A DNA stretch of 64,000 nucleotides, taken from the NCBI GenBank assembly GCA_039587315.1, contig JBDHIS010000021.1, positions 1,972-65,971 of the forward strand. Reading direction: 5' to 3'. Position numbers and translations under genes: made by a program. Every line of letters starts with the position of its first letter. Position 1 is the stretch's first letter. The notes under the pieces were generated by a model. That model did no database searches and was not told the origin of the DNA. It worked only from the letters and a program-made list of their open reading frames with translations. The DNA comes from Gemmatimonadota bacterium. GTDB taxonomy: Bacteria > Gemmatimonadota > Gemmatimonadetes > Gemmatimonadales > GWC2-71-9. Positions 1 to 12,941 of this stretch are shown here, one piece after another.

Positions 1-1051
1 TCCCGCCGGCCACGAGAGTGGCGTCCTGCTTTCCGCTCTCGATGTAGGACATCACCTTCTCGTGCTGTCGCCTCGACGCGATGGCGCCGAGCCTCGTATC
101 CCGATCGAACGGGTCGCCTACGGCGAGCCTCTTGGCGCGCGAGGCTAGCTGTTCCACGACCTCGTCGTGCACGGAGCGCTCCACCAGAAGCCGCGAGCCC
201 GCAGCGCACACCTCACCCTTGCCGTAGAAGATGCCGTTCTGGGCGCCCTTTACCGCCGCCTTCAGGTCGGCATCGGCGAAGATGATGTTGGGGCTCTTGC
301 CTCCCAGCTCGAGCGTCACGCGCTTGAGCGTGTCGGCCGCTTGCCGCATCACCTGCTGGCCGACGGCGGTAGACCCGGTGAACGCGATCTTGTCGACGCC
401 AGGGTGCCGCACCAGAGCGGCCCCGGTCGTCGGCCCGTCGCCCGGTACAACGTTGAACGCTCCGGCGGGGAAGCCGGCTTCCGCCATGATCTCTGCCATA
501 AGGAGCGCCGTCAGCGGCGTCTCTTCGGCGGGCTTGAGCACGATCGTGCATCCCGCGGCCAGGGCAGGGGCGAACTTCCAGCTGGCGAGGTTGAGCGGGA
601 AGTTCCATGGTACGATCGCGCCGACCACGCCGACGGGCTCGCGCACCGTGTACACGAAGTCCTGGCCGTCCACCGGGAGGACCGCGCCGGCCACCTTGTC
701 GGCCCAGCCGCCGTAGTACTTCAGCGTCTGCACCGTGGATGCCACGTCTATCTTGGACTCGAACAGTGGCTTGCCGTTCTGCCGCGTCTCGAGCTCCGCC
801 ATCTCCTTGCGTCGCTCGTGCAGCAACTCACCCGCGCGGTGGAGCAGGGCGCCGCGCCGGCGGCCCGACAACGCACGCCACTCTTCGCTCTCCAGGCACC
901 TGCGCGCGGCCTCGACCGCTGCGTCCACGTCAGCCGCACCGCCCGCCTCGACCGACGCCAGCACTTCCTCGGTGGCGGGGTTGACCACCTCGAGCTGTTT
1001 GCCCGAGGCGGCCGCCCGCCATTCGTTGTCTATGAACAGCTGGGTGCGCAC
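1..1051 (-). CDS. NAD(P)-dependent aldehyde dehydrogenase; the C-terminus runs off the window edge. Last gene of the paa cluster.
   Basis: My own minus-strand translation gives VRTQLFIDNEW...WKFAPALAAGCTIVLKPAEE...VTLELGGKSPNIIFADADL...GEVCAAGSR, which are classic ALDH motifs. The GTG start at 1051 overlaps the TAG stop of the upstream gene. It is absent from the ORF track because it is truncated. Confidence 0.85.
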   Translation of the reverse strand, partial: MRTQLFIDNEWRAAASGKQLEVVNPATEEVLASVEAGGAADVDAAVEAARRCLESEEWRALSGRRRGALLHRAGELLHERRKEMAELETRQNGKPLFESKIDVASTVQTLKYYGGWADKVAGAVLPVDGQDFVYTVREPVGVVGAIVPWNFPLNLASWKFAPALAAGCTIVLKPAEETPLTALLMAEIMAEAGFPAGAFNVVPGDGPTTGAALVRHPGVDKIAFTGSTAVGQQVMRQAADTLKRVTLELGGKSPNIIFADADLKAAVKGAQNGIFYGKGEVCAAGSRLLVERSVHDEVVEQLASRAKRLAVGDPFDRDTRLGAIASRRQHEKVMSYIESGKQDATLVAGG

Positions 1052-1851
1052 TAGACGCCCTTGAACTCGGGCTTGCGCTTCTCGGTGTAGGCCGAGAGAC
1101 CCTCGGTCGCGTCAGCGCTCTGGAACAGCTGCTGCTGCAGTTCGCGCTCGATGGCGAGCCCGCTCTCGAACGGCACCTCGAGTCCGGAGCACACGGCGCG
1201 CTTGATGTTGCCCACCGCCTTGGAAGCCTTGCCCGGCGTGCAGAACTGCCTTGCGTAGGCGACCGCGTCGTCCCAGAAGTTCTCCTTGGGGAACACCTCG
1301 TTCACGAGGCCGATCTCCTTGGCCTCCTCGAACGAGAACATGCGTCCGGTCGCCATCATCTCGATCGAGCGCGACTTGCCGAGGATGCGCGACAGGCGCT
1401 GCGTCCCGCCCGTTCCCGGCAGCACGCCCAGCGTCACCTCCGGCAGCCCGATCTTGCCGTTGTCCTTGCAGGCCACGCGCAGGTCGGCGGCCATCGCGAT
1501 CTCGAGACCGCCGCCCACGGTGTGTCCGTTCAGCGCGGCGATCACGAGCTTTGGTGTCTGCTCGAGCCTGTTCAGTGTCTCGTTGGCGTGGAGGCAGAAG
1601 AAGTACTTGAAGCGGGGCGTCACCTCCGACAGCATCTGGATGTTGGCTCCCGCCGAGAAGAACTTCTCGCCCTTGCCGCGCAGCACGATCACCTCCACCT
1701 CGTCATCCATCCGCGCGGTGAGGATCGCCTCGTCCAGCTGGCGCATCATCTCGTAGGTGTAGGTGTTGGCCGGCGGATCGTTCAGCTCCAGGATCGCCAG
1801 GCCATTTTCGGTGCGGTATTCCACCAGCGTGTTGTTAGCGGTCTTCGCCAT
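1051..1851 (-). CDS. enoyl-CoA hydratase/isomerase (crotonase) family protein
   Basis: Crotonase fold motifs are present: FFSAGANI, GHTVGGGLEIAMAADLRV and LPEVTLGVLPGTGGTQRL. The start was moved to the ATG at 1851 (MAKTANNTL), which has AAGGAGG 9 nt upstream. Confidence 0.85.
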   Translation of the reverse strand: MAKTANNTLVEYRTENGLAILELNDPPANTYTYEMMRQLDEAILTARMDDEVEVIVLRGKGEKFFSAGANIQMLSEVTPRFKYFFCLHANETLNRLEQTPKLVIAALNGHTVGGGLEIAMAADLRVACKDNGKIGLPEVTLGVLPGTGGTQRLSRILGKSRSIEMMATGRMFSFEEAKEIGLVNEVFPKENFWDDAVAYARQFCTPGKASKAVGNIKRAVCSGLEVPFESGLAIERELQQQLFQSADATEGLSAYTEKRKPEFKGV

Positions 1852-1928
1852 TGCGGTGCTTCCTCCTTGGGTTTCCGTAGCGCGGTCGGAGGGCTTCGCC
1901 ACACCGGCCGCAGGCCAGTAGTATCACT

Positions 1929-2120
1929 CTAGGGTCGTTCCTCGTCGAGGAACTCGGGAAGATCCAGCTCTGCCTCCCTGTCGCCCCACTTGATCGCCTC
2001 GAACGACGACCGGCACTTTCGGCAGTAGTGCAGGGCCACCATCAGCGACGTCCCGAAGTCGGACTGCTTCTCCGTTTCGGTGGACTGACAGAACGGGCAG
2101 CTCTTGCTCGGCGCGTTCAC
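1929..2120 (-). CDS. PaaD-like zinc-ribbon protein (stand-alone C-terminal module of PaaD)
   Basis: 63 aa with CPFC-x(~24)-CRKC and a SDFGTS motif, resembling the C-terminal Cys4 tail of E. coli PaaD. Its GTG start overlaps the paaC stop (GTGA). Confidence 0.7.
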   Translation of the reverse strand: MNAPSKSCPFCQSTETEKQSDFGTSLMVALHYCRKCRSSFEAIKWGDREAELDLPEFLDEERP

Positions 2121-2935
2121 TGTTTGAGCTTGAAGACGGCATTCTTGCTGCCGCGCAAGTGGTACAGGATGTCATCGCTCGGGCCGGTGCCCTGCGCCCG
2201 TCGCGTCCTGGGGCTCCAGCCGTCGGGCGCCGCCCCAGCCACTTCGATTCGGACCCCCAAGGGCGCGGCAACCTGCTCGATGTCCGAGACCAGGTCCGCG
2301 AAGACTTCGGGGTTGGTCTTGGACTTCACCGCCGCTTCCACCAGTGCCTCGTCCTCCGGCTCGTTCGCCGGACCGAACCACTCCTTAGCGCTAGCCAGGG
2401 CACGGTTCACGGCCGCTTCAGCGGAGCGCCGGCACTCCTCGCTCTTGCCGCACAGCGTGCGGAACCAGCCCTGCCCGTGGTGAATGTGGTAGCGCTCCTC
2501 GTCCAGCATCTTCTCGAGACTCATCCTGAGCGGCGCGAACGACGAGCCCTTGAGGGAGTGGAGCAGGCGCGTCAGCGCCAGGTCCACCACGTAGTTCGCG
2601 GCGACGAGCTCGGCCCAGTCCGTGAGATCCCGATCCAGGTAGGAGATGCTGGCGAACTCTCCGGGCTTCCGGCCCTCGACCAGCTGCACGGGATCGGCAC
2701 CGTAGTGCCGCTTTAGCAGGCCGTGCAGCAGCCGGACGTGTCCCAGCTCCGTCTGGCATAGCGAGCAGCCCGCGATCGCCGCCTCCAGCTCGGGCGGGCC
2801 GAACGTCCACTCACCGTAGTGGTATCCCAGCATGAGCTTCGTGTCGGCACAGGCGGTCAGCAGGTTGCGCAATCCGTCGGCGCACGCGTCGCTCATGCCT
2901 TCCGTGGAGTCGTATTGCTTGGCTGTCTGAATCAT
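2117..2935 (-). CDS. paaC: 1,2-phenylacetyl-CoA epoxidase subunit C
   Basis: 272 aa with a ferritin-like di-iron fold signature (LMLGYHYGEW...QTELGHVRLL...EERYHIHHGQGW). It sits in the paaA/B/C context. Confidence 0.85.
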   Translation of the reverse strand: MIQTAKQYDSTEGMSDACADGLRNLLTACADTKLMLGYHYGEWTFGPPELEAAIAGCSLCQTELGHVRLLHGLLKRHYGADPVQLVEGRKPGEFASISYLDRDLTDWAELVAANYVVDLALTRLLHSLKGSSFAPLRMSLEKMLDEERYHIHHGQGWFRTLCGKSEECRRSAEAAVNRALASAKEWFGPANEPEDEALVEAAVKSKTNPEVFADLVSDIEQVAAPLGVRIEVAGAAPDGWSPRTRRAQGTGPSDDILYHLRGSKNAVFKLKQ

Positions 2936-2942
2936 GCTCCGC

Positions 2943-3158
2943 TCAGTTGCCCCACAGCGGCAGTGCGCCGTCGTGAGTGATCGATATGAAGGCGTTGCGC
3001 GGCACGACGCACATCTCCACCCACTTTTCCTCGTCGTACATCGTCCACGCGTAGGCCTTGGCCAGGTCGTCGTCGGCAGCGTTCACGCTCCCCACGTGCT
3101 TGAGCGCCTCCGTATGGTCCTTGCGCGCGAACACCTCGTAGACCTGCGCGTAAGTCAT
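2943..3158 (-). CDS. paaB: 1,2-phenylacetyl-CoA epoxidase subunit B
   Basis: 71 aa (MTYAQVYEVFARKDHTEALKHVGSV...), the typical PaaB size and sequence, located between paaA and paaC. Confidence 0.85.
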   Translation of the reverse strand: MTYAQVYEVFARKDHTEALKHVGSVNAADDDLAKAYAWTMYDEEKWVEMCVVPRNAFISITHDGALPLWGN

Positions 3159-3173
3159 CCTCGATCCCCTCGG

Positions 3174-3485
3174 TTAGTTGACCACGCCGTATATGCGCAA
3201 CACGCGCCGTCCCCGGTCGCTGATGCGGTCCTTGGACCACGGCGGGCTCCAGACTATCTCGAGCTCCAAGTCGCTGATGTCGGGAAGGGCCAGTACCGCC
3301 TCACGCACGTCGGAGCAGATCATGTCGATGGCGGGGCAGCCGATGGACGTGAACGTGATGTCCACGTGCGCTCTGTCCCCCTCGACGCTCGCGCCGTACA
3401 CCATGCCCATGTCCACGATGCTCAAGGGGTACTCGGGATCGGTCACGGCCCCGAGTGCCTCCCACACCGCCTCTACGCCTGCCAC
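3174..3485 (-). CDS. DUF59/MIP18-type Fe-S assembly domain protein (N-terminal module of PaaD)
   Basis: Contains TDPEYPLSIVDMGMVY...ITFTSIGCPA...VWSPPWS, the DUF59 hallmark. The start was placed at the GTG at 3485, with GGAGG 5 nt upstream. It overlaps the paaA 3' end by 13 nt. The longer track ORF (to 3713) is Arg/Gly-rich read-through. Confidence 0.75.
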   Translation of the reverse strand: MAGVEAVWEALGAVTDPEYPLSIVDMGMVYGASVEGDRAHVDITFTSIGCPAIDMICSDVREAVLALPDISDLELEIVWSPPWSKDRISDRGRRVLRIYGVVN

Positions 3486-4429
3486 CGGCGGCCTCCGAAA
3501 AGTCCACCGTTGCCCTGGACCATCTCCACATAGCGTTCGTTCATCGGCCCGCGCGCCTTCCAGCGTTCGAACACCTGGTCCCACGTCAGCGCCTCGTCGT
3601 GCAGCCAGCGCTTCTCGCCCGGATCGTACTGGCAGGGAAACGTGCAGTCGATGACGTACTCCTCGTTGTCGCCGTCCCAATGGGCCGGGACGCTTATCCC
3701 TATCCCCTCGCACAGCGGCACCGTGGCGGCCATCCAGGTCTGGCGCAGCTGGTCGTTCGTCTTGCCCTTGAGCCGGTAGTCAAGCTGCCCGCTGTGCCGC
3801 TTGAGGTCGTCCGGCAGGCCGAACCACTCGAGGGTCATCACGAACATCCAGTCCACCGCACGCTGCAGCGCCTCCCTGGCCTCACCGCCGGCCTTGGAGA
3901 GCCGCTTCATCCACGACTCGCCGTGCCGCAGGTGGAGGATCTCCTCTCGGTCCACCTTCACGAGCGCCCGCTTGAGCGGACCGTAGCTCGTGTGCTCGTG
4001 CACGTCGCCGAGCAGGGTGATGCCGGCGCGATCGAAGAAGCCGTTGGCGACCACCATCTCCGCCCAGTTCTCGAGCGGCTGATCGAATCCGTACGGATGC
4101 TTGAACTCGTGCGGCTGGCGTCCGTACACGAGGTGCTGCTTGTCCACGCCGAGGTCCTCCATGATGCGGTAGGCGATGTTGGCGTGGCCCAGCTCGTCGT
4201 GCACGATGGCGGTCACCGCGATGCGGCTGTCTATCGTGGGTGCATCGCGGGCGGCCAGATAGTAGGCCGGAGCGCTCATCAGCTCAGTGTCCCCCTGGAC
4301 CGTGAGCTGCGTGAGCAGCGCCTTCTTGTACCCCGGGGTCATGTCCTCTTCGGATTCGACCATGAAGCCTTCGTTTATCCTGTCGATGAGGGCCTGCTCA
4401 CTGGGGTCGCGTGGCTTCTTGCTCGTCAC
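3473..4429 (-). CDS. paaA: 1,2-phenylacetyl-CoA epoxidase catalytic subunit A
   Basis: Di-iron ligand motifs DELGHANIAY and EEILHLRHGESW are present. The start was set at the GTG at 4429 (VTSKKPRD), 4 nt after the TetR stop, so the two genes do not overlap. Confidence 0.9.
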   Translation of the reverse strand: MTSKKPRDPSEQALIDRINEGFMVESEEDMTPGYKKALLTQLTVQGDTELMSAPAYYLAARDAPTIDSRIAVTAIVHDELGHANIAYRIMEDLGVDKQHLVYGRQPHEFKHPYGFDQPLENWAEMVVANGFFDRAGITLLGDVHEHTSYGPLKRALVKVDREEILHLRHGESWMKRLSKAGGEAREALQRAVDWMFVMTLEWFGLPDDLKRHSGQLDYRLKGKTNDQLRQTWMAATVPLCEGIGISVPAHWDGDNEEYVIDCTFPCQYDPGEKRWLHDEALTWDQVFERWKARGPMNERYVEMVQGNGGLFGGRRWQA

Positions 4430-4433
4430 CGCG

Positions 4434-5054
4434 TCAGCCTCTCTGGTTCTGGTTGATCGCCGCGCCCCCGGCGCGCTCCGGCGCGGCTCCGCGCAGGAAC
4501 AGCTCCGTGAAGTGCTCAGCGAGGGCATCGGGACGGATCGCTCCCGCGGGGTCGTACCAGGTGTAGATCCAGTTCATCATCCCGAACAGCGCGTAAGCGG
4601 CCACCTTGCTCCCGCCAGCGCCGTTGGCCGCGAATCCTGCGCCTTCCATCAACCCCAGCAGGAGGTCCACGTAGCGCCGCTTCAGTCCGTCGATCGCCTC
4701 GCTCCGCGGGGCCGAGAGGGTCTCGGCTTCGTGCGAGAGGACTTTCATCTCGGGCATGTGCTCGGCAAAGAACGTCACGTGGTGGTGGATGAAGCGCTGC
4801 AGGGCATCGGCCGGGTGCCTGGCAGCCCCCACGGCCGCCTCGGCGCCCTCCAGGACCTCCGTGAAACAGCGCTCTTGGACCAGGGCCAGCAGCTCGTCCT
4901 TGCCGCGCACGTAGTGGTACATCCCGGCCAGGCTCATCCCCGTCTCACGCGAGAGATCACGCATGGTCGTGGGGTGGTAGCCCTTGGCCGCGAACACCCG
5001 CGCCGCAGTGGCCAACAGGTCGTCGAGTCGCTGATCGTAGGTCTTTGGAGTCAT
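4434..5054 (-). CDS. TetR-family transcriptional repressor, PaaR-like. The start is ambiguous (5054 or 5138).
   Basis: TetR HTH region: AARVFAAKGYHPTTMRDLSRETGMSLAGMYHYVRGKDELL. It is the first gene of the paa operon and a palindromic operator lies immediately upstream. Confidence 0.8.
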   Translation of the reverse strand: MTPKTYDQRLDDLLATAARVFAAKGYHPTTMRDLSRETGMSLAGMYHYVRGKDELLALVQERCFTEVLEGAEAAVGAARHPADALQRFIHHHVTFFAEHMPEMKVLSHEAETLSAPRSEAIDGLKRRYVDLLLGLMEGAGFAANGAGGSKVAAYALFGMMNWIYTWYDPAGAIRPDALAEHFTELFLRGAAPERAGGAAINQNQRG

Positions 5055-5055
5055 T

Positions 5056-5069
5056 CGAACGTACGTTCG
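5056..5069 (-). promoter_or_regulatory. Perfect 14-bp palindrome CGAACGTACGTTCG; candidate PaaR operator
   Basis: The sequence is its own reverse complement. It fits the CNAACGNNCGTTNG consensus I recall for Thermus PaaR. It lies just upstream of the TetR start and downstream of TTGACC (5100-5105, minus strand) and a TAGGTT/TATAGG -10-like box (5077-5084). Confidence 0.55.
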
Positions 5070-5177
5070 GTCGGAAAACCTATAGGGATGGTCCCGTTTG
5101 GTCAACGCCCGGGCTCCCAGGGGCCCAATTCCGGCCATCCCGGTTAACTTTGCCCGCCGTGAGACGTCCTACTCAAT

Positions 5178-5726
5178 GTGACCGTGCCTGAGCCCGCAGG
5201 GCCGGCGGATGACGCCCAGCTCATCGCTGCCTGGCGCGCCGGCGACGAGGTGGCGGCGGCGGAGCTGGTGCGGCGCCACACCCCGCCATTGGCGCGGTTC
5301 CTGGCGGCTTCGGGCGCGCGCGAAGACCTGGATGACCTGGTGCAGGAGACACTGTTTCGGGCGTTCAGGAAGATCGAGAGCTTCAGGGGTACTGCGAGTT
5401 TCTCGACCTGGCTGATGGCGATCGGCTCGAACGCGCTCAAGGACTTGCGACGCCGCGCCAAAGGGCGAACAGTGGTGCCGTTGGACGACCGGGAGCTGGA
5501 GGCGGAGGATGGAGATCCGCATTCACTCGCTCTGGAGCGGGACCTGTTGCGGCGGCTCGAGGCGGCCGTGAAGAAGCTGCCTCCGATGCAACGGGACGTC
5601 TTCTTGATGCGGGCCCAGCAGGGAGCCGAGTACGGCGAGATCGCCGAGGCGCTGGAAACGTCGGTCGGGGCGGCACGAGTGCACTACCACCAAGCCGTGA
5701 AGCGGCTGAAGGCGAAGCTGAAATGA
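5178..5726 (+). CDS. ECF-type RNA polymerase sigma factor (sigma-70 family, group 4)
   Basis: Region 2 (DLVQETLFRAFRKIESFRGTASFSTWLMAIGSNALKD) and region 4 (LPPMQRDVFLMRAQQGAEYGEIAEALETSVGAARVHYHQAVKRLK) are both recognisable. Confidence 0.85.
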   Translation: MTVPEPAGPADDAQLIAAWRAGDEVAAAELVRRHTPPLARFLAASGAREDLDDLVQETLFRAFRKIESFRGTASFSTWLMAIGSNALKDLRRRAKGRTVVPLDDRELEAEDGDPHSLALERDLLRRLEAAVKKLPPMQRDVFLMRAQQGAEYGEIAEALETSVGAARVHYHQAVKRLKAKLK

Positions 5727-6133
5727 ACGACCACGAACTGGAACGGCTGGCGAAGCAGCTCGGCAGGGCAGGTGACCGGGTGGATCCCGAAGCTACCGCT
5801 CGCGCCGTCCTGGACCGGCTGAAGGCCGAATCGGAGCAGGAGCCCTCGGTTCGGGCACCGGCGTGGACGCGCCGACCTTTGGTTCGCGTCGCAGCGGCAG
5901 CGGCCCTGGTGGCAGCCACCGTCTTGGGCGTCGAGCAGCTGCGGGGTCCAGCGACCCCGACCGATGCCGAACTCCCTGTTGCGGTCAGCCTGAGTGAGTT
6001 GGCGGCTGACGAGCTCAACTCCGTGCTCGATTCGCTCGATTACGAAGCTCCGGTCCACGAGCTGGTTCCCGTGGCCCTGGCCGATCTCAACGAGGACGAG
6101 CTGACAGCGCTCCTCGAGTCGTTGGAGGGATGA
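5723..6133 (+). CDS. putative anti-sigma factor (single-pass membrane protein, non-ZAS)
   Basis: ATGA overlap with the sigma gene. One TM segment (VRVAAAAALVAATVLGV). No HxxxCxxC motif. The assignment rests on position only. Confidence 0.5.
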   Translation: MNDHELERLAKQLGRAGDRVDPEATARAVLDRLKAESEQEPSVRAPAWTRRPLVRVAAAAALVAATVLGVEQLRGPATPTDAELPVAVSLSELAADELNSVLDSLDYEAPVHELVPVALADLNEDELTALLESLEG

Positions 6134-6612
6134 TGCGTACGATTCTCTTGGTTCCCGCTTTGGCCGCTCTCACGGTACAGCCGCTGACCGCACAAGAGCC
6201 CCCTGAGCGCCGCCAGCAATTGCAGCAGGAGGTGATGCGCCGCTTCACCGAGAACTATCGGGCGCAGGTGGGTCTGGACGATGAGCAAGCGGCCCGCTTC
6301 GAGGAGACGGCGCAGCGGTCCATGGAACACCGCACGACCGCCCTCCAGAGGGAAAGGCAGCTATGGATGGCGCTCCAGGGTCAGATGCGGCCCGGCGTGG
6401 GCGCCGACGAGGACAGCCTCCGGACCCTGATGGCCGCGTTGATCGACATTCAGCAGGAGCGTGTGGACCAGACTCGGGAGGAGATGGCAGCCTACGGCGA
6501 GTTCCTCACGCCGGTTCAGCAGGCGCAGCTGATGCTCTCACTGCGCAGGCTACAGCACCAGATCGAAGGAGCGCGGATGCGCCAGCGCGGACCGCCGGGG
6601 GGAAGACAGTAG
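6130..6612 (+). CDS. periplasmic LTXXQ-motif (Spy/CpxP-like) protein
   Basis: Signal peptide MMRTILLVPALAALTVQPLTAQ, a helical Gln/Arg-rich body and an FLTPVQQAQL motif. ATGA overlap with the upstream gene. Confidence 0.6.
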   Translation: MMRTILLVPALAALTVQPLTAQEPPERRQQLQQEVMRRFTENYRAQVGLDDEQAARFEETAQRSMEHRTTALQRERQLWMALQGQMRPGVGADEDSLRTLMAALIDIQQERVDQTREEMAAYGEFLTPVQQAQLMLSLRRLQHQIEGARMRQRGPPGGRQ

Positions 6613-7587: not shown

Positions 7588-8121
7588 TCAGCCCGCGATC
7601 TTCACGTCGACGCAGCCGTAAAAGGCTCCGCTCGTGGCATCGCCCACCAGGCAGAACTCCACGGTTCCGCTCAGTCCGCCGAGACCCAGCTCGGTGGCCG
7701 CGAAGTGGAACAACAGATCGAGCGCGCCATTTCCATCGACGTCCACCAGGTGCTCGATCAGCACGTCGTCCCCGCTGAAGTCATGCTTCGGGGAAGCGAA
7801 CACATCGCCCCGGCCGAACAGGATGGTCGAGGTGGCGACCGTGGTCACGTCGAAGGGCTCGCCCTCCGACTCCGGCACCCCGAGGAGGGCCACCGTCACA
7901 GTCCCTTTCTTCTTCCGGCTGAGCACGTCGAAACCCAAGCTCTCGTCCGAGCCCAGCGCCGGCTTGAAGTCGATGGTCAGCTCCCGGGCGTCGTCCGGGA
8001 TCGTTGCGAACAGCCCCGGCTCCATCGGGGCTGCCGCACTCGCGTCTGGGGCGGCCGGGGACGCCCGCTCGCACCCGACAAGAGCGAGCATCGCCACCGG
8101 CACCAGCATCATCCGAAGCAT
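7588..8121 (-). CDS. hypothetical lipoprotein
   Basis: The start was moved to M85 of the track ORF (MLRMMLVPVAMLALVGCE, with lipobox LVGC). A DVDGNGALD loop is Ca-binding-like. The upstream 84 residues of the track ORF are Pro/Arg-rich read-through. Confidence 0.6.
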   Translation of the reverse strand: MLRMMLVPVAMLALVGCERASPAAPDASAAAPMEPGLFATIPDDARELTIDFKPALGSDESLGFDVLSRKKKGTVTVALLGVPESEGEPFDVTTVATSTILFGRGDVFASPKHDFSGDDVLIEHLVDVDGNGALDLLFHFAATELGLGGLSGTVEFCLVGDATSGAFYGCVDVKIAG

Positions 8122-8234: not shown

Positions 8235-9596
8235 CTAGTGGGTGGGGCGGCGGATCTTGCGGTAGAGAGTGCGGCGGTCGATTCCGAGGATGTCGGCTGC
8301 CTGACTGCGGTGGCCGTGGGTGTGGTCGAGCACGGCCCCTATGTACTCCTGCTGCAGCCGGTCGAGCGACCAACCCTCGTTGATGGGCTTATCCCACGAG
8401 GATTTGTGAGGCCCCGGGCCGCCTGCGGGCGGGGGCGGCACGGCGGCCGGTCCGGAGGTCGCCACGACGAGCGCACGCTCCACCCAATTCCGCAGCTCGC
8501 GCACGTTGCCGGGCCAGTCGTACGCCGAAAGGCCCTCCATCACCGGCTCCGGGATATCCACGGGCTCCATGCCGAGGTCAGCGGCGATCGTGTCCCGAAA
8601 GTGCAGCACCAGCAGCGGTATGTCGGCGCGTCGCTCCCTGAGAGGGGGCAGCTGAATCGGGAACACGTTGAGCCTGAACCACAGGTCCTCCCTGAAGCGC
8701 CCTCCGGCTACCTCCGCTTGCAGATCCACGTTAGACGCGGCAACGAGACGGAAGTCGATCGGCATGTCGTGAGCGGCGCCAACCCGCTGGATGGTGCGCT
8801 CCTCCACCGCCCGCAGGAGCTTGGCCTGCATCGGCAGTGTGAGAGTCTCGATCTCGTCGAGGAAGAGGGTGCCGGAGGCGGCTTGCTCGAACAGACCTGA
8901 TTGGCTCACCACGGCGCCGGTGAAGCTCCCCTTGGTATGCCCGAAGAACTCGGACTCCAAGAGTTGCTCGGGCACGGCGGAGCAGCTCACCGGCACGAAC
9001 TTCTTCCCCCTGCGGGGGGATAGCTCGTGGATGATGTGAGCCATCAACTCCTTGCCCGTTCCCGTCTCGCCGCTCAGTAACACGGTGACACGGGTTGGGG
9101 CCACCTGCTCGGCCAGGTCGAGCACGCGGTCGACTGTTCGCGTGGTACCGATGAACGGCGCCGTGCCGTTCGGGCTGCGCCGCCGGAGGCGCGCTACCTC
9201 GCGGTGCATGTCGGCCTGCCTGAGGGCGCGCTCGCATCTCAGCACGACCTCACCGATCTCGAACGGTCGTGTGATGTAGTCAGTGGCGCCCATCTGCATC
9301 GCGTTGACCGCGGTGCGTACGTTGTCGTCGGCTGCTATGACGATGACCTGAGCGCTGGAGTGGATGGCGCGGGCCTTGATGAGGAGGCAGAGGCCCTCCT
9401 GGCCCGGTTTGCAAGCGGCGAGCACGACCATGTCGAAGTCGCGCCGGGCCAGCTCGTCCATGGCCCGCTGCCCGCACGGCGACACCGACAAGGCACAGCA
9501 GTCGCGGCCAACCGCCGCGCGTGCGACTGCCAGGCCTTCCGACTCGTCGTCGTCGACGACGAGGATCTGCGGCTGACGGGCAGAATCGGCAGCCAC
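8235..9596 (-). CDS. sigma54-dependent enhancer-binding protein (NtrC family) with a degenerate receiver domain
   Basis: Walker A GETGTGKE, a GSFTGA loop (GAFTGA variant), an AAA+ core and a C-terminal Fis-type HTH (ILGIDRRTLYRKI). The start was set at the GTG at 9596, with GGGGGGAGG just upstream. Confidence 0.9.
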   Translation of the reverse strand: MAADSARQPQILVVDDDESEGLAVARAAVGRDCCALSVSPCGQRAMDELARRDFDMVVLAACKPGQEGLCLLIKARAIHSSAQVIVIAADDNVRTAVNAMQMGATDYITRPFEIGEVVLRCERALRQADMHREVARLRRRSPNGTAPFIGTTRTVDRVLDLAEQVAPTRVTVLLSGETGTGKELMAHIIHELSPRRGKKFVPVSCSAVPEQLLESEFFGHTKGSFTGAVVSQSGLFEQAASGTLFLDEIETLTLPMQAKLLRAVEERTIQRVGAAHDMPIDFRLVAASNVDLQAEVAGGRFREDLWFRLNVFPIQLPPLRERRADIPLLVLHFRDTIAADLGMEPVDIPEPVMEGLSAYDWPGNVRELRNWVERALVVATSGPAAVPPPPAGGPGPHKSSWDKPINEGWSLDRLQQEYIGAVLDHTHGHRSQAADILGIDRRTLYRKIRRPTH

Positions 9597-9666
9597 CGCT
9601 ACCTCCCCCCCTTTGGACTGGGCGCCGGCCAAGGAGCGGCACACCCGATCTTCGGGTTGAGGCCAA

Positions 9667-9715
9667 TGTCGCAGTCGGCCTCCTGGGCCACAAGGGAGTG
9701 GGACAAACTGCGACA
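9667..9715. promoter_or_regulatory. inverted repeat TGTCGCAGT-N31-ACTGCGACA; candidate enhancer (UAS)
   Basis: Perfect 9-bp arms lie about 90-135 bp upstream of the -24/-12 element, inside the divergent intergenic region. Confidence 0.3.
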
Positions 9716-9801
9716 CATCGAAAACCAGGAACAACTCGGTCCCGATTGGACAACCCACTCGCCGGTGTGTGGTTGTGCCCTTCCGTGCGCTTCCCGGGCG
9801 C

Positions 9802-9818
9802 TCGGCACGGCAGTTGCC
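9802..9818 (+). promoter_or_regulatory. sigma54 (-24/-12) promoter
   Basis: TCGGCACGGCAGTTGCC compared with the consensus YTGGCACGRNNNTTGCW. GG and GC have the correct spacing, and 15 of the 17 consensus positions are satisfied (12 of the 14 that are constrained). It lies about 140 bp upstream of the ATG at 9960 and next to a sigma54 activator gene. Confidence 0.6.
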
Positions 9819-9959
9819 ACCACGAGAGGTGCCGAGATCCACGGCGGTGGCCGACAGCCGGCGGGGCGGGTCGTTTCCCGGAAACTTGCATGGCGGGCCT
9901 CCGCACAACTCGTGACCGCGTCGGCAGTCAATAGGCCGGCGCGAAACAAGGAGGTTCGC

Positions 9960-11192
9960 ATGAGGCGGTCGAGACGATGGTTGGGTGTAGTGACGGCTGC
10001 CGTCGCCCTCGTGTTCCTGGGCGGCTGCGCCGACACACCGACGGATGTTGCGCTGGCGAAGGGCGGCGTCCCAGGTGCACCCGAGGGGAAGGGCAAGCCC
10101 AACGGCGAGGAGACTGCGGGCAACAACCTGTCGTACCCCGTCATCTGGTCGGAGGGTGTGCAGAAAGTGTTGCCCGGTACGCCTGGCATGGTGCCGGTGG
10201 TGCAGGGTGAGTGGTGGTACTGGTGGGGCACTGAGGGAGCGGATCCTGACATCACGCCGCTCAGCTGCCTGCCGGATCCGGACGACAACGCGCTATGCGA
10301 CGACGGCGTCGAGGGGCAGGCGACCGGCGCGACGCCGGGAGTCGGGCACGAGGCCGACCTCGTAAAGGCGTTCGTTCAGAAGGACCCGCTGAACCAGTGG
10401 CAGGCAGCTTCCGGCACTCCGGCTGAGTTCGGTGTGGACCAACTGGACGGCTCGCTGTACGTGGACTGGATCGACTGGGGCGACAACCTGGAGTCGGTAG
10501 ACTGGTACACCAAGTCACAGGTGCGCACCGAAGTGGTCCTGTTCCAGGAGAACCCCGATCCGCTGGTCCCCTGGCTCGAGTACGGGATGCGCCACGTGGA
10601 TGGCTGGGGCATCGACGAAGTCCATGGTCTGGCGGCCAGCATACCCGGCGATGTTCCCGAGATCGGCCCAGGATCGATGGCGACGGTGTTCTCTCCTTGC
10701 GCGCGGCTCACGATCCAGAAGCTCACGAAGGACCGGGATGATCCGACGCTCAGCACGACGTGGAACTCAGAGACCCACCAGTGGGATGGCGACGTCAACG
10801 CGCCGATCTTCAACCTCCCCGTATGGTCCGCCGGCGACGGTCCCGGCTACTACAACGCCGAGATCAACGTCAAGGGTCGGATCATTTTTGGCTACACCTG
10901 GAACGTGCGCAGACTGAACGACGATGGGGCTGGAGACTATCGCGCCACGTTCAGCTTCGACCAGACCTGTGGTACCGCGACGCTCAACACGTTCTTCGTG
11001 GAGGGCGTCACCGAGATAATCGTGCCGCTGGAGGAAGAGGCCTTGTTGACGGCCGACGACGACGGCGGCGACACCGGCGGTGCGACGGCCATGCTGGATA
11101 CCGGGAACAACCTCACCTACATCGACATCCGGATCCTCGAGCGCGGAGGCGGTGGAGGCGGTGGTGGAGGTGGAGGTGGCGGCAAGCCATAG
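9960..11192 (+). CDS. orphan lipoprotein with a C-terminal 13-Gly tail
   Basis: AAGGAGG lies 5 nt before the ATG at 9960. Signal and lipobox: MRRSRRWLGVVTAAVALVFLGGC. Trp/Asp-rich body with no motif I recognise. Ends ...ILER-G13-KP. The track ORF start at 9204 is read-through antisense to the activator gene. Confidence 0.75.
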   Translation: MRRSRRWLGVVTAAVALVFLGGCADTPTDVALAKGGVPGAPEGKGKPNGEETAGNNLSYPVIWSEGVQKVLPGTPGMVPVVQGEWWYWWGTEGADPDITPLSCLPDPDDNALCDDGVEGQATGATPGVGHEADLVKAFVQKDPLNQWQAASGTPAEFGVDQLDGSLYVDWIDWGDNLESVDWYTKSQVRTEVVLFQENPDPLVPWLEYGMRHVDGWGIDEVHGLAASIPGDVPEIGPGSMATVFSPCARLTIQKLTKDRDDPTLSTTWNSETHQWDGDVNAPIFNLPVWSAGDGPGYYNAEINVKGRIIFGYTWNVRRLNDDGAGDYRATFSFDQTCGTATLNTFFVEGVTEIIVPLEEEALLTADDDGGDTGGATAMLDTGNNLTYIDIRILERGGGGGGGGGGGGGKP

Positions 11193-11325
11193 ATGAAATC
11201 ACTCTCGGCCGGGTTCGCTTCAGCGGCGCTGCGGCCACCCCCCCAAGGGCGCGCACAAGACGCCGTTGTCCTGGGCCCGGCCACCCAAGTCCCAGATCCC
11301 GGGCAGGTTGACTGAGGAGGGGATC

Positions 11326-12345
11326 ATGAATGGAAAGAGCAGGGCGGCGGCGCGCGGCGCAGGGCGGCGCGCCCTATGGCTCGGCGCACTGATTGGTGTC
11401 GCCGGTTGCGCCGTGGATGGCGGTGTCGGACCGGCACCGGACTTCGCGGCGGCAGGACTCAGCAGCACCGGCCACGCGACGGGCAACATCGAGATCGTAT
11501 GGCCTGGCGGGAAGGGGAAGGAGATCGCCCCTGGGGAAGAGAAACTGGCGTTTGCCGAGTTCAATGCATTTCCGGCAACCGACAGGCAGCTCGCACGGGG
11601 AACGTTTGTATACCGCGTGCTCAACGCCGATGAGAGCCCGCACCGGGAGATCACGGCGAACGTGACCGGCGCCTTCGTGGACCCCGCGACTGCAAAGGCT
11701 TGGTTCGTGGGCCTGGTGGAGTCCGACGTCAAGATCTGCAGTGGGGGCGGGGGCTCGTGCGACGGGCACGATGACGGTACGACGCACGACGATGGCGGAT
11801 GCACTCACGATGACGGCACCACGCATGACGACGGTGGCTGCACCCACGATGACGGAACCACTCACGATGACGGTGGATGCACCCACGACGATGGTACGAC
11901 GCACGACGATGGCGGATGCACTCACGATGACGGCGCAACGCATGACGACGGTGGCTGCACCCACGATGACGGAACCACTAACGATGACGGTGGATGCACC
12001 CACGACGACGGCACGACGCACGACGACGGTGGCTGCGACGGCGGGGGCTCGGAGCCGGGTGGCGGTGGGCACGGGAGCGTGCCCGGCAAGGATCCTCGAG
12101 TGGGGCAGGTAGTGGTATTGAAGATGCACGACGTCGCTACCCCGGGTGCCGACGGCGACGGTGTCACGTGGAAGTGGTTTGCCCCTGAGAGCTGGGAATG
12201 GTTCGAGGACGTGGAAGGGCTGCGTCCGGCGCTGGGTCCGCTCGCAGGTGAGGGCGCGGACAAGGCGGGGCCGACTGAGTGGCCCCACCTGTGCAAGAAG
12301 ACGATCATCGGCGGGAACCTGGTAGTGCACCTGCCGAACAAGTAG
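11326..12345 (+). CDS. orphan lipoprotein containing a (HDDGTTHDDGGCT)x7 repeat
   Basis: GAGGAGG lies 5 nt before the ATG at 11326. Lipobox LIGVAGC. A His/Asp/Cys repeat block is embedded between two non-repetitive halves. Confidence 0.75.
   Translation: MNGKSRAAARGAGRRALWLGALIGVAGCAVDGGVGPAPDFAAAGLSSTGHATGNIEIVWPGGKGKEIAPGEEKLAFAEFNAFPATDRQLARGTFVYRVLNADESPHREITANVTGAFVDPATAKAWFVGLVESDVKICSGGGGSCDGHDDGTTHDDGGCTHDDGTTHDDGGCTHDDGTTHDDGGCTHDDGTTHDDGGCTHDDGATHDDGGCTHDDGTTNDDGGCTHDDGTTHDDGGCDGGGSEPGGGGHGSVPGKDPRVGQVVVLKMHDVATPGADGDGVTWKWFAPESWEWFEDVEGLRPALGPLAGEGADKAGPTEWPHLCKKTIIGGNLVVHLPNK
11767..12039 (+). repeat. 7 x 39-bp in-frame tandem repeat with 117-bp higher-order periodicity
   Basis: Units start at 11767, 11806, 11845, 11884, 11923, 11962 and 12001. 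At the DNA level unit 1 resembles unit 4, unit 2 resembles unit 5 and unit 3 resembles unit 6. Confidence 0.95.
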
Positions 12346-12484
12346 TGGAAGGGGGTCCGCCCGTGGGGGTCCGTGGCCAGCACGTTCGGCCACGCAACAA
12401 CGACCGCCCTGCTTGACCCCTCGGGCGGACTTGCCCTGCGGGACACACGCATCGCGGAGGCCACTCCATAGGCCGGCCGAGGAG

Positions 12485-12784
12485 CTAGTGGTCCACCAGC
12501 GCCCACCCCCTGTGGTGCCGGCAGGCGCCGCGGACCTTGCGGTAAAGTGTGCGGCGGTCGATACCCAGAATGGATGCCGCTCTGGTCCGATGGCCACCGG
12601 TTTGGTGCAGCACCGCAATGATGTACTCGCGCTCTACGTGCTCGAGGGTCCAGCCCTCCTTCAGCGGCCGGTCCCATTCCCAACCGGTGTCACCCGGATC
12701 GAGCACCGGACATAGGCGACGTCCCACGGGAGCCCTCGCCAGAGGTGGCGCCCTGCTACTTGGTTGACTGACCGGGAGGCCCAC
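12485..12784 (-). pseudogene. orphan Fis-type HTH fragment; probable remnant of a second sigma54 activator
   Basis: WDRPLKEGWTLEHVEREYIIAVLHQTGGHRTRAASILGIDRRTLYRKVR aligns with the last ~55 aa of the 8235-9596 protein. There is no AAA+ domain, no SD and no convincing start. Confidence 0.4.
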
Positions 12785-12857
12785 AGGTAACGGCGATGCA
12801 CCGGATCGATCCCGCGCGCCGGTGGTCCATGCCCAAGGGTTATATTCCCACTCCCAC

Positions 12858-12941
12858 GCCCGAGTGGTGGAATGGCAGACACGCGGGACTCAAAATCCCG
12901 TGCCGGTTAACGGCGTGTGGGTTCGACTCCCACCTCGGGCA
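12858..12941 (+). tRNA. tRNA-Leu (anticodon CAA)
   Basis: I folded it by hand. Acceptor GCCCGAG/CTCGGGC. Anticodon stem CGGGA/TCCCG with loop CTCAAAA. Long variable arm GCCG-TTAA-CGGC. T arm GTGGG-TTCGACT-CCCAC. Discriminator A. No encoded CCA. Confidence 0.9.

Follow-up and report, generated by a model that had tools for sequence, protein, structure and literature searches.

Tandem 13-residue repeats in a putative metal-binding loop of a beta-domain lipoprotein from uncultured Gemmatimonadota and their relatives

The lipoprotein gene repB lies in a 64,000-nucleotide stretch of a Gemmatimonadota genome (GenBank assembly GCA_039587315.1, contig JBDHIS010000021.1, positions 1,972 to 65,971), which we will call the window; all coordinates refer to it. 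Seven tandem 39-bp units within repB encode the 13-residue peptide HDDGTTHDDGGCT over and over. We found that this array belongs to a His/Asp/Gly/Cys-rich tract that is a feature of a whole family of lipoproteins, and not peculiar to the window gene. The tract is predicted to be disordered and is inserted in the turn of a beta-hairpin, and its peptide sequence is under purifying selection while the number of units turns over rapidly. We propose that the tract is a polyvalent transition-metal-binding loop, and from its sequence, the structural models, and the known proteins that it resembles, we give this proposal about an even chance of being correct.

The original prediction for this locus described seven in-frame 39-bp units at 11767-12039 (+ strand; residues 148-238), and Tandem Repeats Finder and cutting the sequence every 39 nucleotides agree on them. 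Tandem Repeats Finder reported both a period-39 array (11767-12036, 6.9 copies, 80% matches, score 344) and a period-117 array (11767-12026, 2.2 copies, 95% matches, score 478). The longer period corresponds to a duplicated triplet, as had also been proposed. Units 1-3 (11767-11883) and units 4-6 (11884-12000), which are the more recent duplicate, differ at 6 of 117 positions. In a matrix of pairwise identities, unit 1 matches unit 4 at 37/39 positions, unit 2 matches unit 5 at 37/39, and unit 3 matches unit 6 at 38/39, versus 29-34/39 for the remaining pairs. The terminal seventh unit (12001-12039) is more diverged. Every unit encodes HDDGTTHDDGGCT except for T to A in unit 5, H to N in unit 6, and D instead of T as the last residue of unit 7. 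The first two of these had been described as the only substitutions, so the near-invariance of the peptide stands but the list was one short. The 91-residue array contains 13 His, 29 Asp (about 28 in the earlier count, which was right about His and Cys), 21 Gly, 19 Thr, and 7 Cys. It is 32% Asp and 23% Gly, with a net charge of about -29. Each unit has two His, one Cys, and four Asp, with the spacing H-x5-H-x4-C.

The repB gene (11326-12345, + strand) begins with an ATG at 11326, just downstream of a GGAGG-type ribosome-binding site, and its stop codon is at 12343-12345. Its product, RepB, has 339 residues and begins with a lipoprotein signal peptide (11326-11409; MNGKSRAAARGAGRRALWLGALIGVAGC). 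The signal has a basic n-region and a hydrophobic h-region and ends in ...LIGVAG|C28 (RRALWLGALIGVAG|C), so that the lipobox V-A-G-C matches the pattern [LVI][ASTVI][GAS]C (MNGKSRAAARGAGRRALWLGALIG-VAG-C28). The predicted lipidated residue, Cys28, is nearly invariant in both family alignments (A1 and A2), and residues 12-27 form a helix in the AlphaFold2 model. Because of the lipobox, we expect that RepB is extracytoplasmic.

The AlphaFold2 model of RepB was built with a 56-sequence alignment. In this model, residues 50-136 and 262-335 form a single beta-rich domain of nine strands, with a predicted local distance difference test score (pLDDT) that is mostly above 90. The N-terminal part of the domain (residues 50-138, 11473-11739) ends in ...SDVKIC138 and has five strands with pLDDT above 90 (50-57, 74-82, 91-99, 105-119, and 124-136). 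The C-terminal part (residues 258-339, 12097-12342) reads RVGQ...KMHD...GDGVTWKWF...WPHLCKKTIIGGNLVVH and has strands at 262-268, 279-285, and 323-335 (pLDDT 80-93). Between the two parts lies the complete tract (residues 139-257, 11740-12096), which is predicted to be disordered: residues 147-248 are unstructured, with pLDDT of about 37-49. A second model, of the homolog with the shortest linker (P0029), has the same domain and again a disordered tract. (P0029 was chosen so that a long linker would not split the Foldseek alignment.) With either model, Foldseek found no significant match in the PDB (best E 0.18-0.28, TM-score below 0.25). Weak resemblances to avidin-like and DUF1849 beta-barrels were dropped since their Foldseek scores were not significant. 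On the basis of these models, the globular domain of RepB seems to be all-beta and previously undescribed.

We treat the open reading frames that run antisense over the array (minus strand, 11374-12618, among others) as artefacts of the high GC content; the homology and selection signals are all in the plus frame. In another assembly of repB (P0001), an in-frame deletion of 31 amino acids (GLSSTGHATGNIEIVWPGGKGKEIAPGEEKL, at about 11452-11544) takes out the WPGGKGK loop together with the first beta-strand, and the seven-unit array is identical. This deletion reflects either natural variation in the population or a mistake in assembly.

The array had originally been placed between two non-repetitive parts of a lipoprotein, and this description can be refined: both parts belong to one beta-domain, with the array in a hairpin turn. 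The profile search of representative proteins described below also recovered proteins of 160-186 amino acids that match both halves of RepB (P0343, P0348, P0333, P0319, and others). In these relatives, a 4-8-residue turn connects the strand "AWFAGxCTxDS" with "VGQWLxVKVxDGGTPG". When we aligned the insertion-free group to the repeat-bearing family with hhalign (99.85% probability, E = 1.3e-30), there was one gap of about 125 residues, which coincides with the tract. Because the insertion-free relatives have a short turn at this position, and because AlphaFold2 joins the two halves, we interpret the repeat as an insertion into a beta-hairpin. There are also intermediates: the loop of P0293 is short and contains one Cys, and that of P0284 is 45 residues long, free of Cys, and HEDGG-rich. 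C138 and C323 flank the base of the loop; they are (nearly) invariant in the repeat-bearing family and are missing from the insertion-free relatives. In one subclade, WPCKLC replaces WPHLC. The insertion-free relatives and P0284 were seen on contigs of 1.1-1.6 kb only, and scans of 10 insertion-free relatives against Pfam and NCBIfam gave no match. This sister family consists of small secreted proteins with the motifs FNAHEAK...RPAKG, AWFAG, DGGTPG, and GNLVVH.

We found 166 homologs of RepB, all of them unnamed. An exhaustive profile search of 1.84 billion representative proteins gave only 160 clusters, including 63 with E <= 1e-30. Among species-representative genomes, which we searched with a profile from 12 sequences, the family is found in Gemmatimonadota, Cyclobacteriaceae, Cytophagales, Mariniphaga, Ancylomarina, Bacteroidales, Ignavibacteriaceae, and Krumholzibacteriia. 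All of these genomes are metagenome-assembled genomes (MAGs). One further homolog is from Limisphaerales. The nearest genome to the window's RepB is a Gemmatimonadota MAG (71% identity; L009), and the window sequence is present in sequencing runs of marine or sediment metagenomes. The repeat was not recognized when it was first described, and we did not recognize it either. RepB has no hits in Pfam or NCBIfam at E <= 1, and neither the family profile, the array peptide, nor LipoA (the product of the adjacent gene) gave a meaningful match in sequence searches of the PDB. A literature search for "HDDGGC" found no paper that contains the motif.

The window protein fits the common architecture of the family: a lipoprotein signal, an N-terminal part (...HREI...SDxKxC), the tract, and a C-terminal part (RVGQ..KxHDxGTPG..GDGITWKWF..WPHLCKKxIIGGNLxVH; the consensus ending can also be written as WPHLCKKTIIGGNLxVH). 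The invariant residues of the C-terminal part are R258, Q261, D269, D278, W282, W284, C323, K325, G330, and N331. Across the family, the tract ranges from 35 to 177 amino acids, with a median of 97. The consensus around its Cys is H(-5/-4) D/T D(-3) G G C S/T, with the core H-[DT]-D-G-G-C-[ST], and the most common heptamers are HDDGGCS (68), HTDGGCS (40), and HDDGGCT (24). The spacing between Cys residues peaks at 10-13 residues. Genomes with 36-48% GC encode the motif with GAT/GGT/CAT/TGT codons, and genomes with 64-68% GC use GAC/GGC/CAC/TGC instead. Because the motif is retained over 36-68% GC with different codons, a purely compositional origin is excluded.

Some members of the family appear to have swapped in other metal-ligand chemistries. 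Five of them (P0004, P0011, P0020, P0027, and P0045) have Met-Gly blocks (GGMGGGDMGGG) in the same loop; the Cys-free HEDGG loop (His/Glu) and the WPCKLC variant are other examples. We also used the parity of the Cys count as a proxy for pairing. Among mature proteins, 33 have an even number of Cys and 26 have an odd number; among 23 representatives, 16 are even and 7 are odd (p = 0.09). Because parity is random, the Cys are not an obligate disulfide scaffold.

The differences between units of the array are overwhelmingly silent. We counted 109 synonymous and 18 non-synonymous codon differences (about 86% synonymous), and the nucleotide differences by codon position are 18/6/119. Of the single-nucleotide changes that are possible in the codons of the array, only 21% would be synonymous. 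Selection acts on the peptide and not on the DNA. At other loci, the same loop has its own in-frame tandem repeats, with periods of 27, 30, 36, 39, 57, 60, 66, 99, or 213 bp and 75-97% matches. These repeats are independent and ongoing expansions in other lineages. Variation in copy number had been predicted, and we observed it among relatives: in a cluster defined at 90% identity, there are three HDDGTT(D/H)DGGGCS units in P0247 and two in P0244 and P0246 (from another contig). These near-identical assemblies differ by one 39-bp unit, or 13 amino acids, and the repeat period is lineage-specific. The silent differences between units, the persistence of the motif across GC contents, and the independent repeats together indicate peptide-level selection with rapid turnover in copy number.

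As to the number of units in the window itself, the 273-bp array is not spanned by short reads, so the count of seven rests on assemblies. An identical 339-residue RepB is encoded by 9 contigs that were assembled independently and come from several samples, which speaks against an isolated error of assembly. A 369-nucleotide Logan contig (k=31, run X1) joins 11775 to 11893 and skips exactly 117 bp, which gives a four-unit form. Because 42 nucleotides fit on either side of the joint, this could be a real four-unit allele or a de Bruijn collapse; the k of these contigs is too short to resolve the array. In two raw-read runs (X21 and X22), there were 0 reads over the locus at 3-4% sampling. A 155-nucleotide contig from a marine-sediment metatranscriptome is identical to 11520-11666, which is a weak hint that repB is expressed.

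What might the tract do? We suggest that the array is a local and recently expanded form of a family-wide disordered loop in a beta-hairpin turn, and that each 13-residue unit is a plausible His2-Cys(-Asp) site. The window protein would then offer about seven sites, equivalent to one another and of low specificity, for borderline or soft transition metals (Zn, Cu, Ni, Co, or Cd), with Cu or Zn as the most likely ligands, and the sites would be carried on a flexible, strongly acidic, lipid-anchored tether. RepB might serve to buffer metal, or to capture it, at the cell envelope, and the conserved Cys and His residues at the loop's base (C138, H321, and C323), or a partner protein such as LipoA, might then receive it. 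In-frame gain or loss of units, by slippage or recombination, would tune the binding capacity between lineages. In Gemmatimonadota, repB appears to come second in an operon of two lipoprotein genes, whose expression would depend on a sigma54-type promoter together with a divergent NtrC-family regulator.

The combination of disorder, conserved ligand residues, free spacing, an extracytoplasmic site, random Cys parity, and Met-Gly or Cys-free variants is as expected for a polyvalent, low-specificity metal-binding tether. The free variation in the length, period, and copy number of the tract is expected of multivalent binding and not of a folded repeat. Because such binding would be multivalent and unstructured, selection could keep the ligand motif yet tolerate the gain and loss of units. 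Metal binding is a plausible inference that fits the composition, the conservation pattern, the disorder, and the analogous proteins discussed below. Zn, Ni, Cu, and Ca had all been suggested as ligands. We rank transition metals above Ca or minerals because classical Ca2+-binding motifs are absent and because His and Cys are better conserved than the Asp patterns; of the metals in the original prediction, Ca is the least supported.

Several observations weigh against metal binding as we propose it. The dominance of Asp and Gly in the array would equally suit hard cations or mineral surfaces. In an oxidizing periplasm, the Cys could be disulfide-bonded, and the disorder in the AlphaFold2 models can hide a fold that depends on metal or on disulfides. 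Because Foldseek against the PDB found no recognizable fold relative, no function can be transferred to the RepB domain. In the loci that we compared, none of the genes conserved beside repB is for a metal transporter, metallochaperone, or metal-sensing regulator. Also, the promoter-like element upstream has the GG at -24 of the canonical sequence TGGCACG-N4-TTGCW in the window only; the five relatives with GCACG-N4-TTGC have AG or CG.

If hard cations are the target, then the tract could be an acidic region that binds Ca2+, Fe, or mineral surfaces: a disordered Asp/Gly polyanion would adhere to or nucleate minerals, and the His and Cys would be secondary. Disordered Asp-rich proteins are typical mineral binders, and besides the composition of the array, the sources of these sequences (all sediment or marine metagenomes) would fit. 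But the array contains no DxDxDG, Excalibur, or RTX motif, and it has no Pfam match to TSP_3 or Excalibur. It is the His, the Gly-Gly, and the Cys that are best conserved, not the runs of Asp, and where relatives have Met-Gly in place of the Asp/His blocks, the Met is a soft-metal ligand. We think that mineral binding is rather unlikely. The chance seems smaller still that the tract is a passive flexible spacer, that is, a low-complexity product of slippage that binds nothing and is tolerated in a surface loop. Such a spacer would be disordered, as predicted, and could vary widely in length and period, and the insertion-free relatives indicate that the domain folds without it. A spacer does not explain the strong purifying selection on the peptide, or why H-x-D-G-G-C-S/T is kept across phyla and from 36% to 68% GC, or why every member of the subfamily has at least about 35 amino acids of tract. 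Furthermore, the tract closes a hairpin, so it separates nothing.

The seven evenly spaced Cys, with no constraint on parity, might instead form a loop for thiol redox or sulfur handling, as carriers of persulfide or polysulfide in the envelope or as a buffer against oxidants there. The habitat is sulfidic sediment, and one relative adjoins a pyridine-nucleotide disulfide oxidoreductase. Yet CxxC and rhodanese-like motifs are lacking, the loci compared have no conserved sulfur-metabolism genes close by, the loop of P0284 has no Cys at all, and the conserved His and Asp would be left unexplained, so we consider this quite improbable. We have even less confidence that the copy number is an artefact of short-read assembly, with repeats being expanded or collapsed. 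The Logan contig that skips a triplet would allow for this, but the same product is found on nine contigs from several independently assembled samples, and the 6 differences between the triplets are enough to anchor a large-k assembly. (What we conclude about the family holds whatever the exact number of units.) Least probable of all is that RepB is a scaffold whose HDDGGC[ST] cores are excised by an associated protease to yield secreted metal-binding peptides. Multi-core repeats are typical of some precursors of ribosomally synthesized and post-translationally modified peptides, and an S8 subtilase is encoded between family X and repB in three loci from Bacteroidota, where there is also one fusion protein (see below). 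However, no protease or maturase is encoded in the Gemmatimonadota loci, including the window; there are no conserved cleavage sites around the units; the sequences of the units vary freely; and RepB is a lipoprotein with a conserved folded domain.

Returning to metal binding, the tract of RepB is conceptually akin to known disordered loops in the cell envelope that are rich in metal ligands. What is new is the Cys-containing 13-mer, its tandem dynamics, the unrecognized host fold, and the two-lipoprotein context linked to sigma54. ZnuA has disordered His/acidic loops of 12-50 residues, which bind Zn with micromolar affinity; this low-affinity capture is proposed to supply the primary site (PMC4542158). 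RepB resembles the cluster A-I zinc proteins (ZnuA, AdcA, and Pzp1) in being extracytoplasmic, as these are (often with a lipid anchor), and in having a disordered His/Asp loop of variable length within a globular domain. But its fold is unrelated to that of ZnuA or AdcA, which has two lobes and a His3(+Asp/Glu) primary site: there was no Pfam match to ZnuA or other solute-binding proteins, and no solute-binding protein was among the Foldseek matches. Also unlike ZnuA, the tract reaches 177 amino acids in the RepB family, every unit in the window has a Cys, the DNA repeats are recent and in tandem, and no ABC transporter is nearby.

In CopI, a periplasmic, cupredoxin-like protein of copper tolerance, an internal His/Met region is disordered even when Cu is bound, and it acts as a copper buffer (PMC13308877). 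The Met-Gly blocks of some RepB relatives are reminiscent of CopI and of other disordered metal sponges such as PcoE and SilE. Unlike CopI, RepB has no match to a cupredoxin fold with its type-1 Cu site in Pfam or in the Foldseek search of the PDB (best E as above), its ligands are His/Cys/Asp instead of His/Met, and it has a long tandem array and not a single short motif. PA4063 from Pseudomonas aeruginosa is a periplasmic zinc-trafficking protein with two His-rich loops that have no ordered structure in the apoprotein and contribute to micromolar surface sites (PMC8561739). Like RepB, it is small and has a non-canonical fold with disordered His-rich loops. It differs in that its fold is ferredoxin-like, its short loops lack Cys or repeats, and it is Zur-regulated, whereas RepB is predicted to be all-beta and under the control of a sigma54-dependent bacterial enhancer-binding protein. 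The periplasmic Zn-binding protein ZraP is expressed from a sigma54 promoter that is divergent from zraSR (PMC4987338). The arrangement of this enterobacterial module for envelope stress and zinc, zraP-zraSR, is similar to that of repB in that an NtrC-family sigma54 regulator is divergent from the gene for an envelope protein, one that in the case of RepB would bind metal. Unlike in zraP-zraSR, there is no adjacent ZraS-type kinase, and RepB and LipoA have no Pfam match to LTXXQ, Metal_resist, or CpxP.

Thrombospondin type-3 and Excalibur repeats are also extracellular, with short Asp-rich units, regularly-spaced Cys, and little secondary structure. DxDxDG(xxCE) has 0 matches in the 91-residue array, however, nor is there a Pfam match, and in RepB the His are conserved. 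Furthermore, all Cys of thrombospondin type-3 repeats are paired in disulfides, while Cys parity in the RepB family is random. The GGxGxD repeats of RTX proteins likewise have 0 matches in the array. Bacterial metallothioneins (SmtA/BmtA) are small domains with over 15% Cys, arranged in Cys4/Cys3His clusters; the tract is 8% Cys, lacks CxC or CxxC, and does not match Metallothio_Pro in Pfam. The C-terminus of SlyD, HypB, Hpn, and UreE have unstructured, high-capacity tracts of His, Cys, and acidic residues, which vary in length and store or deliver Ni or Zn. These tails are cytoplasmic and terminal and do not contain tandem 13-mers, while the loop of RepB is internal and its host domain is unrelated.

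Directly 5' of repB is lipoA (9960-11192, + strand), which encodes a 410-residue lipoprotein and is probably co-transcribed with repB. lipoA immediately precedes repB in all of the Gemmatimonadota loci (L001/L002, which are the window, and L004, L005, L009, L010, L011, L016, and L022), so in Gemmatimonadota the two genes probably form a two-lipoprotein operon. LipoA has over 750 homologs from several phyla, including cultured Desulfuromonas; Desulfuromonas and Competibacteraceae have lipoA without repB. It is a sizeable domain in its own right with no match in our searches of Pfam, NCBIfam, and the PDB. LipoA is Trp-rich, with the strongly conserved motifs NNLSxPVIW, WYWWG, DWGDNLESVDWY, and GPGYYxAEINVKG, and it has a tail of 13 Gly (11145-11183).

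Upstream of lipoA, there is a sigma54-like -24/-12 element (CGGCACGGCAGTTGCC, 9803-9818, + strand). A related element, NGCACG-N4-TTGC, is found at the equivalent position upstream of lipoA in 6/9 related loci, as compared to 0.024 expected per 560 nucleotides, and no sigma70-like promoter was found in 9550-12900. Divergent from lipoA is a gene for an NtrC-family sigma54-dependent response regulator (8235-9596, - strand), with receiver, AAA+, and HTH_8 domains (Pfam; E = 1.6e-63 for PF00158). The arrangement is conserved: such an activator is divergent from lipoA in L001/L002, L004, L005, L009, and L011, and in L016 it is on the other side of repB. The position of these elements and genes suggests that lipoA-repB is likely to be under sigma54 control. 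We could not identify the regulator as ZraR or as any other NCBIfam equivalog, as all scores were under the cutoff (for ZraR, 296.9 versus 760 bits). An intergenic inverted repeat, TGTCGCAG (9667-9674) ... CTGCGACA (9708-9715), lies upstream of the element at 9803-9818, and there are TGTCG...CGACA palindromes at the equivalent place in L004 and L005. These inverted repeats are candidate enhancer sites (upstream activating sequences) for the divergent regulator.

Downstream of repB is a gene for a stand-alone Fis-type HTH_8 protein of 73 amino acids (12485-12706, - strand; Pfam HTH_8, E = 6.8e-16), which is kept near the cluster in L004, L009, and L016. It shares about 61% identity with the neighboring sigma54 regulator over that protein's C-terminal DNA-binding domain, and it could compete for the regulator's DNA sites. 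On the other side, beside the regulator, is a 177-residue lipoprotein (7588-8121, - strand) with 27-62% identity to its counterparts in L004, L005, L009, L011, and L016; it may be in the same regulon. A tRNA-Leu(CAA) gene (12858-12941, + strand) lies just downstream of the cluster. The window from about 1 to 6612 contains a phenylacetate-CoA oxygenase (paaABCD-type) cluster and a TetR regulator, followed by an extracytoplasmic function (ECF) sigma factor, a probable anti-sigma factor, and orf160. We considered whether orf160, a 160-residue secreted helical protein with an LTPVQQ string, is of the ZraP/CpxP type, but neither Pfam nor NCBIfam supports this. We also rejected a link to the copper supply of N2O reductase, as nos genes are near only one member of the family and none are in the window, and a link to RND/Czc-like (resistance-nodulation-division) efflux pumps, which were found at one locus only.

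In Bacteroidota, repB has a second and different functional association. In L008 (1742-6778), L017 (612-5892), and L024 (754-5854), the gene order is family X (about 400 amino acids), an S8 subtilase (about 1250 amino acids), and then repB. A sorting tail for the type IX secretion system (T9SS) was detected on the subtilase in L017 only. A protein of 903 amino acids (P0271) is a fusion of a family-X domain (99.3%), two Golvesin_C domains, and the repeat-bearing domain. At first, family X seemed to be homologous to LipoA (97%), but this fell to 0.6% once the single included sequence L012 was removed, and we rejected the homology.

Tentatively, we think it possible that RepB represents a new class of envelope metal-handling protein: a new beta-fold, with a hairpin turn that holds an evolvable His2-Cys-Asp4 array, would serve as a metallothionein-like sponge or antenna whose capacity is tuned by the gain and loss of repeats. 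The module would be switched by sigma54 in Gemmatimonadota and linked to family X and a T9SS subtilase in Bacteroidota, and it might serve metal acquisition or detoxification in sulfidic sediments. In such sediments, thiophilic trace metals are in short supply and are also toxic. If RepB does not bind metal, then what we describe is no more than a low-complexity surface loop of an ordinary kind.

If RepB does bind metal, then two new domains (the beta-domain of RepB, and LipoA) and a candidate sigma54 regulon could be annotated, and the His2-Cys-Asp4 13-mer might be useful as a genetically encodable polyvalent metal-binding tag. RepB would also be a clean natural case of binding capacity being tuned by the turnover of in-frame tandem repeats inside a folded domain. 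For the abundant uncultured sediment Gemmatimonadota, and for phyla of the FCB (Fibrobacteres-Chlorobi-Bacteroidetes) group, the family would be a new, phylogenetically restricted module for buffering or capturing metals at the cell envelope.

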